A stretch of 40,334 bases of DNA from Escherichia phage AnnaIndermaur_Bas104 (PQ850595.1), one strand, 5' to 3'; shown: positions 2,889 through 12,820, counted from the first letter of the stretch. Notes: generated by a model not told the origin, from the sequence alone. Numbers and translations: made by a program.

Positions 2889-3042
2889 GGAGGGACGAAA
2901 GGTTACTATATAGATACTGAATGAATACTTATAGAGTGCATAAAGTATGCATAGTAGTGTACCTAAAGTGACCTCTAAGAATGGTGATTATATTATATTA
3001 ATATCACCTTAACTTAAAGACCAACATAAAGGGAGGAGACTA

Positions 3043-3192
3043 ATGTTCCGCTTATTGTTGAACCTATTGCGGCATAGAGTCACCTACCGCTTTCTTATGG
3101 TACTTTGTGCTGCCATTGGGTACGCATCGCTTACTGGAGACCTCAGTTCACTGGAGTCTACCGTTTGCTCTTTACTCACTTGTAGCGATTAG
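3043..3192 (+). CDS. 19.5: gp19.5 homolog, 49 aa small hydrophobic protein
   Basis: MFRLLLNLLRHRVTYRFLMVLCAAIGYASLTGDLSSLES... matches T7 gp19.5; GGGAGGAG RBS; below the 60-aa ORF-track cutoff. Confidence 0.8.
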   Translation: MFRLLLNLLRHRVTYRFLMVLCAAIGYASLTGDLSSLESTVCSLLTCSD

Positions 3193-3432
3193 GGTCTTCC
3201 TGACCGACTGATGGCTCACCGAGGGATTCAGCGGTATGATTGCATCACACCACTTCATCCCTATAGAGTCAAGTCCTAAGGTATACCCATAAAGAGCCTC
3301 TAATGGTCTATCCGTAAGGTCTATACCTAAAGATAGGCCATCCTATCAGTGTCACCTAAAGAGGGCCTTAGAGAGGGCCTAAGGAGTCCCTAGAGGGTCC
3401 TTTAAAATATACCATAAAAATCTGAGTGACTA

Positions 3433-3600
3433 TCTCACAGTGTACGGACCCAAAGTTCCCCCATAGGGGTCCCTAAAGCCCAGCCAATCACCTTGAGTCA
3501 ACTTTCAGTTGACTTTGAGGGTCCCTAAGGGTTGGGGTTGGTCCTTTGGGTTTGTCTTTGAGTGTTTCGTTGTGTCCCTATCTGTTACAACCTCCTAAAG
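3433..3600. repeat. terminal repeat (single collapsed copy) / concatemer junction between genome right and left ends
   Basis: starts TCTCACAGTGTACGGACC..., homologous to the T7 160-bp terminal repeat; right-end sequence precedes it and left-end promoters follow; exact TR limits in this phage are not determinable from one copy. Confidence 0.6.
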
Positions 3601-3707
3601 TCACCTCCTAAAGTCACCTCCTAAAGTCACCTCCTAAAGTCACCTCCTAAAGTCACCTCCTAAAGTCACCTCCTAAAGTCACCTCCTAAAGTCACCTCCT
3701 AAAGTCA
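3591..3707. repeat. perfect tandem array, 9 x 13 bp (CCTCCTAAAGTCA)
   Basis: read directly; T7 has only degenerate CCTAAAG-containing copies here. Confidence 0.9.
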
Positions 3708-3777
3708 TTCCTACCGTCTACAGCCTAAAGCCTAAACCTAAAGACCCATCAAGTCAACGCCTATCTTAAAGTATCCT

Positions 3778-3801
3778 CTAAAGACCAGCCTAAAGACCAG
3801 C
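3778..3801. repeat. 2 x 12 bp tandem repeat (CTAAAGACCAGC)
   Basis: read directly. Confidence 0.7.
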
Positions 3802-3849
3802 CTAAAGCCTATCCCATAGATGCCTTGTTGTTATCTATAAAGAGATACC

Positions 3850-3888
3850 CTTTAATCATTGTCTTTAATCATTGTCTTTAATCATTGT
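3850..3888. repeat. 3 x 13 bp tandem repeat (CTTTAATCATTGT) abutting phiOL
   Basis: read directly; single copy in T7 as recalled. Confidence 0.85.
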
Positions 3889-3891
3889 CTT

Positions 3892-3914
3892 TAATACGAC
3901 TCACTATAGAGAGA
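3892..3914 (+). promoter_or_regulatory. T7 RNAP promoter phiOL (left-end, secondary origin region)
   Basis: TAATACGACTCACTATAGAGAGA. Confidence 0.75.
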
Positions 3915-4717: not shown

Positions 4718-5065
4718 ATGGCTATGTTCAACACTACTTACAGCAACGTTTTCGACTACGCTTACGAAATGCTGAAAGAAAACATCCGTTATGATGACAT
4801 CCGCAGAATTGACGACCTGCACGATGCTATTCATATGGCTGCCGATGATGCGGTCCCTCACTACTATAATGACATCTTTAGTGTAATGGCAAGCGATGGC
4901 ATTGATTTTGAATTTGAGGACTCTGGTCTTATGCCGAACACCAAGGACGTAACCCGCATTCTACAGGCTCGCATCTATGAGCAACTCACTAGCGACCTTT
5001 GGGCAGACGCTGAGGACTTACTGAACGAGTACCTTGAGGAAGTCGAGGAAGAGGAAGAAGAGTAA
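4718..5065 (+). CDS. ocr: Ocr anti-restriction protein (T7 gp0.3 homolog), 115 aa
   Basis: [29 protein letters not shown]... matches T7 Ocr; acidic, poly-Glu C-terminus. Confidence 0.9.
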
Positions 5066-5657: not shown

Positions 5658-6737
5658 GTGAACATTACCGACATCATGAACGCTATCGACGCAATCAAAG
5701 CACTGCCAATCTGTGAACTTGACAAACGTCAAGGTATGCTTATTGACTTACTGGTAGAGATGGTCAACAGCGAAACATGCGATGGCGAGATAACCGAACT
5801 GAATCAGGCACTTGAGTTTCAAGACTGGTGGACTACCTTGAAGTGTCTCACGGCTGACGCAGGATTCAAGATGCTCGGTAATGGTCACTTCTCGGCTGCT
5901 TATAGTCACCCGTTGCTGCCTAACAGGGTGATTAAGGTGGGCTTTAAGAAAGAGGATTCAGGCGCAGCATACACCGCATTCTGCCGAATGTATCAGGGCC
6001 GTGCTGGTATCCCTAACGTCTACGATGTACAGCGTCACGCTGGATGCTATACGGTTGTACTCGATGCACTGAATGATTGCGAGCGTTTCAACAATGATGA
6101 ACATTATAAATACGCTGAGATTGCAAGCGACATCATTGACTACAAATCAGATGAGCACGATGGGCTAACTGGGTGGGATGGCGAGTTCGTCGAGACTTGC
6201 AAGCTAATCCGCAAGTTCTTTGAGGGCATCGCTTCGTTCGACATGCACAGTGGGAACATCATGTTCGATGATAATGATGTACCATACATTACCGACCCTG
6301 TATCGTTCTCACAGAAGAAAGACGGTGGCGCATTTAGCATCGACCCTGAGGAACTCATCAAGGAAGTCGAGGAGGTCGCACGTCAGAAGGAAATTGACCG
6401 CGCTAAGGAACGTAAAGCACGTCATGTGGGTCGATTGGAGGCACGCAGATTCAAACGTCGCAACCGCAAGGCACGTAAAGTACACCAAGCGAAGCACAAG
6501 CGAATGGTCGCTGCGTGGCGAATGGCTGAACGTCAAGAACGACGTAACCATGAGAGAGCTGTAGATGTACTAGGAAGAACCGATAACGCTATGCTCTGGG
6601 TCAACATGTTCGCTGGGGACTTTAAGGCGCTTGAGGAACGAATCGCAGCGCACTGGTGTAAAGCTGACCGAATGGCTATCGCTAATGGTCTTCCGCTTAA
6701 CATCGACAAGAAACTTGACGCAATGCTAATGGGCTGA
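5658..6737 (+). CDS. 0.7: serine/threonine protein kinase / host transcription shut-off (T7 gp0.7 homolog), 359 aa, GTG start
   Basis: same length as T7 gp0.7 and near-identical over the full length. Confidence 0.9.
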
Positions 6738-6807: not shown

Positions 6808-9459
6808 ATGAACACGATTAACATCGCTAAGAACGACTTCTCTGACATCGAACTGGCTGCTATCCCGTTCAACACTCTGGCTGACCATTACGGTGAGCGT
6901 TTAGCTCGCGAACAGTTGGCCCTTGAGCATGAGTCTTATGAAATGGGTGAAGCACGCTTCCGCAAGATGTTTGAGCGTCAACTTAAAGCGGGTGAGGTTG
7001 CGGATAACGCTGCCGCTAAGCCTCTCATTACTACTCTGCTCCCCAAGATGATTGCACGCATCAACGATTGGTTTGAGGAAGTGAAAGCTAAGCGCGGTAA
7101 GCGCCCGACAGCCTTCCAGTTCCTGCAAGAAATCAAGCCGGAAGCGATAGCGTACATCACCATTAAGACAACTCTGGCTTGCCTAACGAGCGTAGACAAT
7201 ACAACCGTTCAGGCTGTAGCAAGTGCAATCGGTCGAGCTATTGAGGACGAGGCGCGCTTTGGTCGAATCCGTGACCTTGAAGCTAAGCACTTCAAGAAAA
7301 ACGTTGAGGAACAACTTAACAAGCGCGTAGGGCACGTCTACAAGAAAGCATTCATGCAGGTTGTAGAAGCGGATATGCTCTCTAAGGGTCTACTTGGTGG
7401 CGAGGCGTGGTCTTCGTGGCATAAGGAAGACTCCATTCACGTTGGTGTGCGCTGCATTGAGATGCTCATTGAGTCCACCGGAATGGTTAACTTACATCGT
7501 CAAAATGCTGGCGTAGTAGGGCAAGACTCGGAGACTATCGAACTTGCACCGGAATACGCTGAGGCTATCGCAACCCGTGCAGGTGCGCTTGCTGGTATCT
7601 CTCCGATGTTCCAGCCTTGCGTAGTTCCTCCTAAACCGTGGACTGGTATTACTGGTGGTGGATATTGGGCTAACGGTCGTCGTCCTCTGGCACTGGTGCG
7701 TACTCACAGCAGGAAAGCACTGATGCGCTACGAAGACGTTTACATGCCTGAGGTGTACAAGGCGATTAACATTGCGCAAAACACCGCATGGAAAATCAAC
7801 AAGAAAGTCCTAGCGGTAGCCAACGTAATCACCAAGTGGAAGCATTGCCCTATAGAGGACATCCCAGCGATTGAACGTGAAGAACTCCCGATGAAACCGG
7901 AAGACATCGACACGAATCCTGAGGCTCTCGCTGCATGGAAACGTGCTGCTGCTGCTGTGTACCGCAAGGACAAGGCTCGCAAGTCTCGCCGTATCAGCTT
8001 AGAGTTCATGCTTGAGCAAGCCAACAAGTTCGCTAACCATAAGGCCATCTGGTTCCCTTACAACATGGACTGGCGCGGTCGCGTTTACGCTGTGTCAATG
8101 TTCAACCCGCAAGGTAACGACATGACCAAAGGACTGCTGATGCTGGCTAAAGGAAAACCAATCGGCAAGGAAGGTTATTACTGGCTGAAAATCCACGGTG
8201 CAAACTGTGCTGGTGTCGATAAGGTTCCGTTCCCTGAGCGCATCAAGTTCATTGAGGACAACCATGAGAACATCATGGCTTGCGCTAAGTCTCCACTGGA
8301 GAACACTTGGTGGGCTGAGCAAGATTCTCCGTTCTGCTTCCTCGCGTTCTGCTTTGAGTACGCTGGGGTACAGCACCACGGCTTAAGCTACAACTGCTCT
8401 CTTCCGCTGGCGTTCGATGGGTCTTGCTCTGGCATTCAGCACTTCTCCGCTATGCTCCGAGATGAGGTTGGTGGTCGCGCTGTTAACCTTCTGCCTAGCG
8501 AAACCGTTCAGGACATCTACGGGATTGTCGCTAAGAAAGTCAATTTGATTCTGCAAGAAGACGTAATCAACGGAACCGACAACGAAGTAGTTACCGTGAC
8601 TGATGAGAACACTGGTGAAATCTCTGAGAAAGTCAAGCTGGGCACTAAGGCGCTGGCTGGTCAGTGGTTGGCTTACGGTGTAACACGTAGCGTGACTAAA
8701 CGTTCAGTAATGACTCTGGCTTACGGGTCCAAAGAGTTCGGCTTCCGTCAACAAGTGCTGGAGGACACCATTCAGCCAGCAATTGATTCCGGTAAGGGTC
8801 TGATGTTCACGCAACCGAATCAGGCTGCTGGATACATGGCGAAACTGATTTGGGAAGCTGTGAGCGTTACGGTGGTAGCCGCTGTGGAGGCAATGAACTG
8901 GCTCAAGTCCGCTGCTAAGCTGCTGGCTGCTGAGGTCAAAGATAAGAAGACTGGAGAGATTCTTCGCAAGCGTTGCGCTGTACATTGGGTAACTCCTGAT
9001 GGGTTCCCAGTGTGGCAGGAATACAAGAAGCCAATTCAGACTCGCTTGAACCTGATTTTCCTCGGTCAGTTCCGCTTACAGCCAACCATTAACACTAACA
9101 AGGATAGCGAGATTGATGCACACAAACAGGAGTCCGGTATTGCTCCTAACTTTGTACACAGCCAAGACGGTAGTCACCTGCGTAAGACTGTAGTGTGGGC
9201 GCATGAGAAGTACGGAATCGAGTCTTTTGCATTGATTCACGACTCCTTCGGGACCATTCCGGCTGACGCTGCTAACCTGTTCAAAGCTGTTCGCGAAACT
9301 ATGGTGGACACCTATGAGTCTTGTGATGTACTGGCTGACTTCTATGACCAGTTCGCTGACCAGTTGCATGAGTCTCAACTGGACAAAATGCCAGCACTTC
9401 CGGCTAAAGGTAACTTGAACCTCCAAGACATCCTTAAGTCAGACTTCGCGTTTGCATAA
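6808..9459 (+). CDS. 1: single-subunit DNA-directed RNA polymerase (T7 gp1 homolog), 883 aa
   Basis: MNTINIAKNDFSDIELAAIPFNTLADHYGERLAREQLALEHESYEMGEARFRKMFERQ... near-identical to T7 RNAP; 883 aa. Confidence 0.97.
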   Translation: MNTINIAKNDFSDIELAAIPFNTLADHYGERLAREQLALEHESYEMGEARFRKMFERQLKAGEVADNAAAKPLITTLLPKMIARINDWFEEVKAKRGKRPTAFQFLQEIKPEAIAYITIKTTLACLTSVDNTTVQAVASAIGRAIEDEARFGRIRDLEAKHFKKNVEEQLNKRVGHVYKKAFMQVVEADMLSKGLLGGEAWSSWHKEDSIHVGVRCIEMLIESTGMVNLHRQNAGVVGQDSETIELAPEYAEAIATRAGALAGISPMFQPCVVPPKPWTGITGGGYWANGRRPLALVRTHSRKALMRYEDVYMPEVYKAINIAQNTAWKINKKVLAVANVITKWKHCPIEDIPAIEREELPMKPEDIDTNPEALAAWKRAAAAVYRKDKARKSRRISLEFMLEQANKFANHKAIWFPYNMDWRGRVYAVSMFNPQGNDMTKGLLMLAKGKPIGKEGYYWLKIHGANCAGVDKVPFPERIKFIEDNHENIMACAKSPLENTWWAEQDSPFCFLAFCFEYAGVQHHGLSYNCSLPLAFDGSCSGIQHFSAMLRDEVGGRAVNLLPSETVQDIYGIVAKKVNLILQEDVINGTDNEVVTVTDENTGEISEKVKLGTKALAGQWLAYGVTRSVTKRSVMTLAYGSKEFGFRQQVLEDTIQPAIDSGKGLMFTQPNQAAGYMAKLIWEAVSVTVVAAVEAMNWLKSAAKLLAAEVKDKKTGEILRKRCAVHWVTPDGFPVWQEYKKPIQTRLNLIFLGQFRLQPTINTNKDSEIDAHKQESGIAPNFVHSQDGSHLRKTVVWAHEKYGIESFALIHDSFGTIPADAANLFKAVRETMVDTYESCDVLADFYDQFADQLHESQLDKMPALPAKGNLNLQDILKSDFAFA

Positions 9460-10075: not shown

Positions 10076-10489
10076 ATGACCGACATAGAACGATTCAACA
10101 GTAAGACCGAACCATGTGGTGACTGTTTGCGTTGGACTGGTAGTATCCAGCCCAATGGTTACGGACGGTTCCGCCTGTATGGTAAGCCTGTATATGCCCA
10201 TAGGGCTTCGTACATTCTGTTCAACGGTGAGTTGAATAAGAGTGATGTAGTCCTACACTCCTGTGACAATAGGTGGTGTGTAAATCCTGCACATCTAACC
10301 AAGGGCACACAGGCAGATAACCTTAGAGACATGGCTATCAAAGGACGTGGTGCTAGAAAGATAACTAATGAGCAGGTCGATATGATACGGACGGACCCTC
10401 GCTCCGGCAGGGAGCTAGCAAGGGCACTTAATGTCGCTGCTTCAACAATACACTACATACGAAATGGCAAACTGAGGAAATACATATGA
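10076..10489 (+). CDS. free-standing HNH homing endonuclease, 137 aa
   Basis: HNH motif region YAHRASY...LHSCDNRWCVNPAHL; inserted between phi1.3 and the ligase gene where T7 has only the R1.3 leader; ATGA overlap with ligase start. Confidence 0.8.
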   Translation: MTDIERFNSKTEPCGDCLRWTGSIQPNGYGRFRLYGKPVYAHRASYILFNGELNKSDVVLHSCDNRWCVNPAHLTKGTQADNLRDMAIKGRGARKITNEQVDMIRTDPRSGRELARALNVAASTIHYIRNGKLRKYI

Positions 10490-11520
10490 TTATTAACTTT
10501 AAGACTTCACCATACAAGGCAGTATCTTTCGTAGAGTCTGCCATTAAGAAAGCTCTGGATAACGCTGGGTATCTTATTGCAGACATTAAGTACGATGGTG
10601 TGCGTGGTAACATCTGCGTAGACAATACTGCTAACTGCTGCTGGCTCTCTCGTGTGTCTAAAACGATTCCGGCGCTGGAGCACTTAAACGGGTTTGATGT
10701 TCGCTGGAAGCGTCTGCTGAGCGATGACCGTTGTTTCTACAAAGATGGCTTTATGCTCGATGGTGAACTCATGGTCAAGGGCGTAGACTTTAACACAGGG
10801 TCTGGCCTACTGCGCACCAAGTGGCTCAACAAGAATAACTTTGAGTTCGACGTTGGCGGTGTACCTCCGCTCAAGGGGTCCAAGGTTGAGTTCGCGTTGG
10901 ACACCAAACGTCTGAGTGTCAAACTGTACGCTATCCTCCCTCTGCACATCGTGGAGTCTGGTGAAGACTATGATGTCATGACGTTGCTCATGCAGGAACA
11001 CGTTAAGAACATGCTGCCTCTGCTACAGGAATACTTCCCTGAAATCGAATGGCAAGCGGCTGAATCTTACGAGGTCTACGATATGGTAGAACTACAGCAA
11101 CTGTATGAGAAGAAGCGTGAAGAAGGCCATGAGGGTCTCATTGTGAAAGACCCGATGTGCATCTACAAGCGAGGCAAGAAGTCAGGCTGGTGGAAAATGA
11201 AGCCAGAGAATGAGGCTGATGGTATCATTCAGGGTCTGATATGGGGGACCGAAGGTCTTGCTAATGAGGGCAAAGTGATTGGCTTTGAGGTGCTTCTTGA
11301 GAGTGGTCGTGTAGTTAACGCCACAAACATCTCTCGCGCCTTAATGGATGAGTTTACAGCGGCATGTGATACTGACACATACCACCTTGCCGGTATAAAC
11401 CCGTACCAAGGCTGGGCCTGCCAGATTAGCTACATGGAGGAAACACCTGACGGCTCCCTGCGTCACCCATCGTTCGTATGTTTCCGTGGCACCGAGGATA
11501 ACCCTCAAGAGAAAATGTAA
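10486..11520 (+). CDS. 1.3: ATP-dependent DNA ligase (T7 gp1.3 homolog), 344 aa
   Basis: adenylation motif KYDGVRG; near-identical to T7 ligase but ~15 aa shorter. Confidence 0.93.
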   Translation: MIINFKTSPYKAVSFVESAIKKALDNAGYLIADIKYDGVRGNICVDNTANCCWLSRVSKTIPALEHLNGFDVRWKRLLSDDRCFYKDGFMLDGELMVKGVDFNTGSGLLRTKWLNKNNFEFDVGGVPPLKGSKVEFALDTKRLSVKLYAILPLHIVESGEDYDVMTLLMQEHVKNMLPLLQEYFPEIEWQAAESYEVYDMVELQQLYEKKREEGHEGLIVKDPMCIYKRGKKSGWWKMKPENEADGIIQGLIWGTEGLANEGKVIGFEVLLESGRVVNATNISRALMDEFTAACDTDTYHLAGINPYQGWACQISYMEETPDGSLRHPSFVCFRGTEDNPQEKM

Positions 11521-11527
11521 TCACACT

Positions 11528-11556
11528 GGCTCACCTTCGGGTGGGCCTTTCTGCGT
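11528..11556 (+). terminator. early terminator TE (rho-independent, host RNAP)
   Basis: GGCTCACCTTCGGGTGGGCC hairpin followed by TTTCTGCGTTTA; identical in sequence and position to T7 TE. Confidence 0.85.
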
Positions 11557-11573
11557 TTATAAGGAGACACTTT

Positions 11574-11729
11574 ATGTTTAAGAAGGTAGGTAAATTCCTT
11601 GTGGCTTGGGCAGCTATCCTTACGTTTGCATATCTTCTGGCGGTATACCCTCAAGCAGCACTTGTAGTAGTGGGCGCTTGTTGTCTAGCGGCAGCGTGTG
11701 CTTGCGTGTGGTACTTCGTCAATTGCTAA
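11574..11729 (+). CDS. 1.4: gp1.4 homolog, 51 aa hydrophobic protein
   Basis: MFKKVGKFLVAWAAILTFAYLLAVYPQAALVVVGACCLAAACACVWYFVNC; matches T7 gp1.4. Confidence 0.75.
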   Translation: MFKKVGKFLVAWAAILTFAYLLAVYPQAALVVVGACCLAAACACVWYFVNC

Positions 11730-11749
11730 TACGACTCACTAAAGGAGGT
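11727..11749 (+). promoter_or_regulatory. T7 RNAP promoter phi1.5
   Basis: TAATACGACTCACTAAAGGAGGT. Confidence 0.85.
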
Positions 11750-11756
11750 ACACACC

Positions 11757-11849
11757 ATGATGTACTTAATGCCATTACTCATTGTCATCTTAGGATGCCT
11801 TGCGCTTCACTATACTGACGATGATGATATGCCCGATGGTCACGCTTGA
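11757..11849 (+). CDS. 1.5: gp1.5 homolog, 30 aa
   Basis: MMYLMPLLIVILGCLALHYTDDDDMPDGHA; matches T7 gp1.5. Confidence 0.7.
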   Translation: MMYLMPLLIVILGCLALHYTDDDDMPDGHA

Positions 11850-11872
11850 CGACACCACTAAGGAGATACCTT

Positions 11873-11995
11873 ATGATGTACTTAATGCCACTACTGATGC
11901 TATTCTTGGTGTCATTACTCATTCTCATCCCTGTATATGCTGTACTGCGTGATGATGATGATGACGATGATGACACACAAGATGACCACGCTTAA
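11873..11995 (+). CDS. gp1.5 paralog (tandem duplicate), 40 aa with poly-Asp tract
   Basis: MMYLMPLLMLFLVSLLILIPVYAVLRDDDDDDDDTQDDHA; same first 6 codons as 1.5; preceded by a degenerate promoter-like remnant. Confidence 0.55.
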   Translation: MMYLMPLLMLFLVSLLILIPVYAVLRDDDDDDDDTQDDHA

Positions 11996-12015
11996 TACGA
12001 CTCACTAAAGGAGGT
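11993..12015 (+). promoter_or_regulatory. T7 RNAP promoter phi1.6
   Basis: TAATACGACTCACTAAAGGAGGT. Confidence 0.85.
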
Positions 12016-12020
12016 ACTAT

Positions 12021-12281
12021 ATGTTTCGACTTCATTTCAACAAAAGCATTAAGAGTTTCACGGTTCGCCGTGCTGACCGTTCAATCGTATGTGCGAGCGA
12101 GCGCAGAGCTAAGTTGCCTCTTATTGGCAACACAGTTCCTTTGGCACCGCGCGTCCACATCATTATCACCCGTGGTGACTTTGAGAAAGCAATAGACAAG
12201 AAACGTCCGGTTCTTAGTGTGGCAGTGACCCGCTTCCCGTTCGTCCGTCTGTTACTCAAACGAATCAAGGAGGTGTTCTGA
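12021..12281 (+). CDS. 1.6: gp1.6 homolog, 86 aa
   Basis: [31 protein letters not shown]... near-identical to T7 gp1.6. Confidence 0.85.
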
Positions 12282-12820
12282 TGGGATGCATAGCTTGCTT
12301 AGAGAAAGACGACCGTTATCCACACACCTGTAATAAAGGAGCTAACAATATGACCGAACGTGAACAAGATATTATCATTAAGTTGATAGATAATAACGAG
12401 GGTCGTACTGGCGACACGTCTGGTTGCGGCCTGTTCTGTGCTGGAGTACCTTGTGGTGAGTGCCCTGTAACAAACGATGAGAACATTACCTTAGGTGAAA
12501 TCCGAGCGATGGACCCACGTAAACCTCATCTGAATAAACTTGAGGTAACTCCTACAGACGACCAGCCTTCCTCTGAGCCAATCGAAGGTGTCACTAAGCC
12601 TTCCCATTACATGCTGTTCGACGACATTGAGGCTATCGAGGTGATTGCCCGCTCAATGACTTGTGAGCAGTTCAAAGGTTACTGCTTCGGGAACATCCTT
12701 AAGTACCGACTGCGTGCTGGTAAGAAGTCCGAACTGGCTTACTTAGAGAAAGACATGGCGAAAGCTGACTTCTATGGGGAACTGTACGAGAAACATAAGG
12801 ATAAGTGCTATGACGCGTGA
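12281..12820 (+). CDS. 1.7: gp1.7 homolog (nucleotide kinase in T7), 179 aa, N-terminally shorter than T7
   Basis: GCIACLEKDDRYPHTCNKGAN...KYRLRAGKKSELAYLEKD... matches T7 gp1.7. Confidence 0.85.
   Translation: MGCIACLEKDDRYPHTCNKGANNMTEREQDIIIKLIDNNEGRTGDTSGCGLFCAGVPCGECPVTNDENITLGEIRAMDPRKPHLNKLEVTPTDDQPSSEPIEGVTKPSHYMLFDDIEAIEVIARSMTCEQFKGYCFGNILKYRLRAGKKSELAYLEKDMAKADFYGELYEKHKDKCYDA

Follow-up and report, generated by a model that had tools for sequence, protein, structure and literature searches.

A second, remodelled copy of gene 1.5 behind a decayed promoter in a small lineage of T7-like phages

In phage T7, a single gene 1.5 (annotated at 7791-7880; NP_041965, 29 aa) is followed directly by the promoter phi1.6, and T7 together with about 170 other records carries one gene 1.5 between phi1.5 and phi1.6. 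In the DNA analyzed here, a stretch of 40,334 nt from Escherichia phage AnnaIndermaur_Bas104 (PQ850595.1) that is called the window below, the same interval holds two small ORFs, at 11757-11849 (copy 1) and 11873-11995 (copy 2). This raises the question of where the second ORF came from and whether it is still a gene. The original prediction, which had placed both ORFs at exactly these positions and described the T7 arrangement correctly, considered copy 2 a recent tandem duplication of the cassette formed by promoter and gene 1.5. The explanation that we favor, and hold to be probable as a whole, is that the promoters mediated a duplication of this cassette, that the promoter in the middle then decayed, and that copy 2 was remodelled as a membrane peptide.

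A 24-kb query from the window showed 98.7% identity to EmilieLinder_Bas103, 96.8% to JeanTinguely and 95.4% to Cedecea phage Yanou, and 92-95% to other Teseptimavirus genomes. Judged by this similarity, the window is a Teseptimavirus genome, and the gene order around the locus is that of T7: DNA ligase (10486-11520), a TE-like hairpin, gene 1.4 (DUF5464, PF17552; 11575-11729), phi1.5, the two small ORFs, phi1.6, gene 1.6 and gene 1.7. Promoters were scored with a position weight matrix (PWM) built from the 16 T7-type promoters of the window genome, whose own scores were 29.4-40.6 bits. Both phi1.5 (TAATACGACTCACTAAAGGAGGT; 11727-11749, plus strand) and phi1.6 (11993-12015, plus strand) reached 34.3 bits and lie in the same places as the annotated T7 promoters of these names. 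Extended by two bases (11727-11751 and 11993-12017), they are exact 25-nt direct repeats. The +1 of phi1.5 is predicted at G11744, and the transcript would carry the Shine-Dalgarno sequence GGAGG at its 5' end. Downstream, the cassette is bounded by gene 1.6 (12021-12281, plus strand), which is syntenic with T7 gene 1.6 and matched phrog_1777 (E=1.1e-41) and PF06726 (E=5.9e-23). The Pfam name of the latter, 'Bladder cancer-related protein BC10', is an odd label for a T7 protein, and the Vi06 annotation has the same match.

Copy 1 (11757-11849, plus strand; 30 aa, MMYLMPLLIVILGCLALHYTDDDDMPDGHA) is the orthologue of T7 gene 1.5 in the same position. It matched the whole phrog_12128 profile (E=6.9e-20) and showed 86.7% amino-acid identity to T7 gp1.5. 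When copy 1 was used as a tblastn query, one place per genome was found in 172/172 matching phage records, the two-copy phages included. Its variable sites fall 1/1/7 on codon positions 1/2/3, with omega of ~0.12 (P=0.003). In EmilieLinder_Bas103 neither copy retains the second ATG of the ATGATG pair, which reads ATA in copy 1 and ACG in copy 2, so that it is the first ATG that is conserved as the start codon. A lipoprotein reading of gp1.5, with IVGC of the T7 protein as a lipobox ([LVI][ASTVI][GAS]C), was rejected: none of the proteins has a basic n-region, the Cys is absent from Vi06 and from copy 2, and ILGC of the window copy 1 falls outside the pattern.

The relationship of copy 2 (11873-11995, plus strand; 40 aa, MMYLMPLLMLFLVSLLILIPVYAVLRDDDDDDDDTQDDHA) to copy 1 was found in the DNA. 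Local alignment of the two cassettes scored 50, compared with a mean of 15.7 (sd 2.5) and a maximum of 26 for shuffled sequences, and the predicted tandem duplication of promoter plus gene 1.5 is thereby supported. The first 17 nt of the two ORFs are identical (ATGATGTACTTAATGCC), and the bases that follow differ at one position (GCCATTACT vs GCCACTACT); the shared start had been described with two varying positions, only one of which differs. The ends of the copies match at 12/15 nt, encoding (M/T)(P/Q)D(G/D)HA, with common 3' ends TGACGATGATGA...CACGCTT. The T-P and T-Q variants of this C-terminal motif are also present in the orthologous gp1.5 of Pila, Yanou and Vi06. A divergent C-terminus, which had been part of the same claim, was not what we found, since the final residues and the region of the stop have been kept and the divergence is internal.

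Where gene 1.5 is single, its stop is the TAA with which phi1.6 begins. In the window, copy 1 ends on a TGA that occupies the place of this TAA and is followed by a gapped promoter match, and the stop of copy 2 (11993-11995) is the TAA of phi1.6 itself. Copy 2 thus lies where a member of the gp1.5 family is expected, between phi1.5 and phi1.6 and with its stop overlapping the TAA of the next promoter. The starts of the two copies are 116 nt apart, and phi1.5 and phi1.6 of T7 are spaced by 117 nt, indicating that the repeated unit is one promoter-plus-gene cassette. Start, end and period therefore all connect copy 2 to gene 1.5 at the DNA level, and the same two-copy arrangement was seen in seven independent assemblies.

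At the protein level the connection is lost. BLASTP of copy 1 against copy 2 gave no alignment, the phrog_12128 profile did not match copy 2 at E<=1, and a Pfam search of copy 2 returned nothing significant. As neither BLASTP, tblastn nor PHROG links the two copies anywhere, the homology had to rest on DNA. The failure of BLASTP and of the gp1.5 PHROG is what speaks for copy 2 being an unrelated gene, a chance ORF or an assembly artefact. However, homology in the DNA, seen in start, end, period and promoter relic alike, stands far above the shuffle controls, and no other family matched copy 2 among 1.84 billion representative proteins. The candidate of a distinct known gene was dropped, its matches being weak ones, with E no better than 1e-3, to three PHROGs without an assigned function, and the seven concurring assemblies rule out an artefact. 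Taken together, such an origin is so improbable that we give it hardly any weight.

The internal divergence of copy 2 could be followed in some detail. Compared with copy 2, the first 33 nt of copy 1 agree at 27/33 positions at offset 0 and at 26/33 positions at offset +24; in a codon-resampling control for the +24 register (mean 11.9, sd 2.5), 0/20000 replicates reached 26. Because the start of copy 1 matches in two registers, copy 2 holds an in-frame 24-nt internal tandem repeat (11873-11920, plus strand), whose units are 11873-11896 (MMYLMPLL) and 11897-11920 (MLFLVSLL); the repeat finding lists a third repeat copy at 11897-11931. The repeat extends the uncharged N-terminal run from 17 residues in copy 1 to 25 in copy 2. 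The middle was rewritten from ILGCLALHYT in copy 1 to IPVYAVLR in copy 2, from which the Gly-Cys is gone, and the Asp run has 4 codons in copy 1 and 8 in copy 2. This Asp8 tract (11951-11974, plus strand) is a GAT/GAC triplet repeat, reported by Tandem Repeats Finder as an array with period 3, 8 copies and 90% matches at 11950-11973. It had been predicted as an eight-codon tract at the end of the ORF; the tract is indeed present, but near the end, with TQDDHA following. Its length is D8 in the window and D6 in five relatives (a clean 6-nt indel), and the Logan contig has DDDYDG. All these variants are in frame, so that they change length only and provide no on/off switch. Copy 2 has 40 aa in the window and 38 in relatives, compared with 29-30 aa in the gp1.5 family (34 in Vi06). 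The internal repeat, the rewritten middle and the longer Asp run explain why copy 2 is invisible to protein methods. In PDP351P2, two neighboring substitutions (GAC to GGT, aligned to window 11985-11986) give the end of copy 2 the same sequence as that of copy 1, GATGGTCACGCT, which suggests gene conversion between the paralogues.

The spacer ahead of copy 2 (11847-11872, plus strand; TGACGACACCACTAAGGAGATACCTT, within which CGACACCACTAAGGAG is located at 11850-11865) holds the position of a cassette promoter, as CACGCTT--GACGACACCACT-AAGGAG. It aligns to phi1.6 only with gaps (CACGCTT--GACGAC-A-CCACT-AAGGAGATAC). The gapped alignment, stop-codon overlap included, scored 17, which 0/2000 shuffles reached; for the core alone the count was 2/5000. 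Unlike the 23-bp class II promoters phi1.5 and phi1.6, the spacer has indels within -17 to -1, and its best ungapped PWM register in 11835-11860 scored -18.5 bits, compared with at least 29 bits for real promoters; 378 window positions scored equally well or better. The same promoter indels were present in 7/7 two-copy genomes. By its sequence, then, the middle promoter is dead, a relic rather than a T7 RNA polymerase promoter. The Shine-Dalgarno sequence AAGGAG (11860-11865), 7 nt before the ATG of copy 2, was intact in all seven genomes, and the decayed promoter copy that had been proposed ahead of the second ORF was thus confirmed, with its ribosome-binding site intact. Sigma-70 promoters and terminators were also sought in the spacer, and their counts were not above shuffle expectation. 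Since the Shine-Dalgarno sequence survives and the promoter is dead, copy 2 should be translated as a second cistron of transcripts begun at phi1.5 or further upstream.

The geometry of the locus points to a route by which the cassette was doubled. An ancestor of a small Teseptimavirus sub-lineage duplicated the T7 promoter and gene 1.5 in tandem, and the most likely mechanism is unequal homologous recombination between phi1.5 and phi1.6, the near-identical promoters on either side of the gene. The exchange may have taken place between two co-infecting phages with different 1.5 alleles, and its product would have been phi1.5 - 1.5 - promoter - 1.5' - phi1.6. Unequal exchange between the 25-nt repeats of phi1.5 and phi1.6 predicts exactly the observed period and junctions. 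In classical T7 genetics, short direct repeats are known as sites between which the phage deletes or duplicates DNA. Here too, identical repeats of 25 nt enclose the unit, whose period is the same as the distance between them, although, in difference from the classical duplications, no intermediate with three intact promoters was found. A search of the open-access literature on the mechanism of T7 short-repeat recombination yielded no useful source. Afterwards the promoter in the middle decayed by two small deletions, one insertion and substitutions, while its Shine-Dalgarno sequence survived. In copy 2, an in-frame duplication of 24 nt extended the 17-residue hydrophobic segment to 25 residues, the Gly-Cys, lipobox-like in copy 1, was lost, and the Asp tract would have grown by triplet slippage.

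A variant of the tandem cassette duplication, rather than an alternative to it, is that copy 2 came in from another T7-like phage as a divergent 1.5 allele, through heterologous unequal crossover at the promoter repeats in co-infection. In the compared region (11856-11898), the leader of the relic (GGAGATAC--CTTATG) and the initial 26 nt of copy 2 (...GCCACTACTGAT) agree with the phi1.5 leader and the 1.5 allele of N30, KKE5P, Pila and Vi06 and are unlike the resident copy 1 (GGAGGTACACACCATG; GCCATTACTCAT), and the TQ motif before the C-terminus is also found in Vi06 gp1.5. On the other side, unit two of the internal repeat (TCATTACTCATTCTCATC) belongs to the resident, T7-like type, and no phage with a copy-2-like 1.5 alone was found in GenBank phages, IMG/VR, JGI metagenomes or protein collections. 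The informative stretches are very short, for which reason the two-phage cross remains a lead; we regard capture as possible, if on the unlikely side.

The distribution of copy 2 bears on the age of the duplication, however the allele was obtained. As a blastn query, 11840-12000 was matched over its full length only in JeanTinguely (Bas64), EmilieLinder (Bas103), PDP351P2, vB_EcoP_SYGE1 and JacobBurckhardt (Bas65), at 91-96% identity. A single relative of copy 2, the Logan orthologue, was returned both when 5.8 billion proteins were searched and when 1.84 billion representative proteins were scanned with HMMER; it sits on a 39.7-kb T7-like contig that also has the two-copy layout. In IMG/VR and JGI metagenomes, scans with degenerate patterns gave no instance of copy 2. 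The two-copy genomes are thus the window, five GenBank phages and one Logan contig, seven in all; the original prediction had proposed a check of related phages for copy number, and Yanou and AV103 turned out to carry one copy.

The duplication had been called recent, and this part of the prediction has to be given up. The same copy 2 and the same promoter indels are present in Bas103, JeanTinguely, JacobBurckhardt, PDP351P2, SYGE1 and the Logan contig; four of these genomes were compared with the window and were only 92-99% identical to it, and the two copies are no longer connected by BLASTP, tblastn or the gp1.5 PHROG profile. The shared promoter indels in seven genomes indicate that both the duplication and the promoter decay predate their divergence. 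Overall similarity interleaves the copy numbers, with one copy in Yanou (95.4%) and AV103 (94.4%, both over 24 kb) and two in SYGE1 (94.2%) and JacobBurckhardt (92.3%), a pattern consistent with the mosaic recombination typical of these phages. On these comparisons, copy 2 is an old, lineage-restricted and remodelled paralogue of a tiny accessory gene.

Whether copy 2 is still a live gene was judged from its variation. The ORF is open in 7/7 genomes and full-length in 6. It has undergone 8 non-synonymous and 7 synonymous changes where neutrality predicts ~3.7:1 (omega ~0.31, one-sided P=0.026), and its hydrophobic core has 2/48 variable sites compared with 13/72 in the rest of the ORF (P=0.026). 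These results showed weak purifying selection on copy 2. The same duplication could nevertheless have left copy 2 as a functionless, decaying relic that stays open by its shortness and the small number of mutations. The variable sites are distributed over the codon positions as 4/5/6, nearly flat, at a rate close to that of the non-coding spacer (4/26). A CAA to TAA change in SYGE1 creates a premature stop by which the last 7 residues are lost, and D-to-Y and D-to-G changes disrupt the Asp tract of the Logan contig. Copy 2 has also diverged past profile detection, and it is confined to seven genomes, with close relatives such as Yanou and AV103 lacking it. Against such decay stand, besides the excess of synonymous changes and the nearly invariant core, the lack of frameshifts, the retention of the Shine-Dalgarno sequence and its spacing in 7/7 genomes while the promoter part of the spacer decayed, and the comparison of the window with JacobBurckhardt, its most divergent relative, in which 3/3 differences are synonymous. 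We find a functionless relic doubtful. The absence of copy 2 from most close relatives marks it as dispensable, and, the evidence being mixed, we read it from its sequence as a dispensable accessory ORF on which constraint is relaxed but non-zero.

The low variability of the hydrophobic core could reflect an RNA structure instead of the peptide. A long, imperfect mRNA hairpin was predicted at 11904-11982 (plus strand; MFE -30.5 kcal/mol, z=-3.04, 0/200 shuffles), in which codons of the hydrophobic segment pair with Asp and Thr-Gln codons. The folding of copy 1 and of T7 gene 1.5 was not significant. The D8 tract, unique to the window, strengthens the hairpin to -30.5 kcal/mol from -26.6 kcal/mol in Bas103 and JeanTinguely (D6). 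If the hairpin served class II transcripts as a signal for processing, stability or pausing, the conserved feature would be an RNA element. Besides the folding energy, it fits this idea that the plus strand folds better than the minus strand, that the 5' arm is invariant in the seven genomes, and that 2/3 main-stem substitutions keep G-U pairing. The third substitution, though, breaks a pair, no compensatory change was found among the seven sequences, and covariance models of Rfam gave no match at E<=1 on either strand of 11400-12400. Much of the pairing is moreover a by-product of GAU (Asp) codons complementing AUC/AUU-rich hydrophobic codons, and weaker versions occur, without statistical support, in ordinary 1.5 genes. 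An RNA element is in our view very improbable, and the predicted hairpin, of uncertain significance, is recorded here as unexplained rather than as a feature.

With copy 2 taken as a weakly constrained coding sequence, its product could be compared with gp1.5. The 25-residue uncharged run has a mean Kyte-Doolittle hydropathy of 2.46 (2.78 in the best 17-residue window) and is, by sequence, long enough to span a bilayer; the net charge of copy 2 is -9. A small peptide that crosses the membrane once and carries a strongly acidic tail is the probable product. Proteins of the gp1.5 family have 29-30 residues, with a hydrophobic head of 17 residues and an acidic tail, and copy 2 lies outside this size range. 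Like T7 gene 1.5, copy 2 has the MMYLMPLL start, the D-x-H-A end, a stop overlapping phi1.6, a hydrophobic head with an acidic tail, and the cassette period. Unlike T7 gene 1.5, it has 40 aa, an extra hydrophobic repeat of 8 residues, no Gly-Cys, D8 in place of D3-4 and no promoter of its own, and it is missed by the family profile, BLASTP and tblastn. Gene 1.4 offers another comparison: like copy 2 it is tiny, hydrophobic, non-essential, of unknown function, and gained, lost or replaced among relatives, but the two are unrelated in sequence, and gp1.4, a basic protein rich in Cys, contrasts with the strongly acidic copy 2.

When 53 T7 genes were screened, Gp1.5 inhibited the growth of E. coli in minimal medium, and two stringent-like RNA polymerase backgrounds relieved this inhibition; two-hybrid assays gave no consistent interaction of Gp1.5 with RelA, SpoT or RpoZ (PMC13483052). 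Copy 2 is most likely a non-essential accessory factor under weaker constraint than gp1.5. A more specific role, in which it would be a neofunctionalized host-directed membrane peptide that owes an activity distinct from that of gp1.5 to its longer transmembrane segment and its slippage-tunable poly-Asp tail, appears improbable to us; if true, copy 2 could extend or modify the host takeover by gp1.5, its level of expression perhaps being set by the hairpin in its mRNA. Because gp1.5 is genetically tied to stringent-response physiology (PMC13483052), the long-form paralogue is a ready-made structure-function variant.

The locus provides a natural example of repeated T7 promoters as recombination substrates that duplicate a promoter-gene cassette, and of a redundant promoter that decays while the ribosome-binding site stays. 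It also illustrates how quickly an ORF of 30 residues can drift past protein-level recognition through an internal repeat and triplet expansion. In practical terms, ORFs annotated as 'hypothetical protein' in Bas64, Bas65, Bas103 and SYGE1 can be labelled gp1.5 paralogue. The significance is modest; this is a real but ordinary gene duplication, and the general understanding of T7 biology is unchanged.

Several further observations were made in the surrounding region. The slot of gene 1.4 varies: gene 1.4 is present in the window, Bas103, T7 and AV103; JeanTinguely and JacobBurckhardt have a putative HNH homing endonuclease instead; and in PDP351P2, SYGE1, the Logan contig, N30, KKE5P and Yanou gene 1.4 is missing, and the TE hairpin is followed directly by phi1.5. 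Another HNH endonuclease ORF (137 aa; 10076-10489, plus strand; PF13392, E=3.9e-8) lies between gene 1.2 and the ligase, whose start it overlaps by 4 nt, and the same ORF was found on the Logan contig. A minus-strand ORF at 11785-11976, poly-Ser and antisense to the Asp tract, was dismissed as a mirror image of the repeat; all annotated genes of this region in T7 and related records are on the plus strand. The map of the window is a circular permutation of that of T7, with an ORF of 586 aa (1026-2786) preceding the early region, in which ORFs of 115 aa (4718-5065), 359 aa (5658-6737) and 883 aa (6808-9459) follow. By size and order, we take these four to be the large terminase subunit, gene 0.3, gene 0.7 and RNA polymerase, respectively. 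From the position of the ligase at 10486, compared with 6475 in T7, and from the permuted ORF order, the genome ends should fall near 2900-3900.
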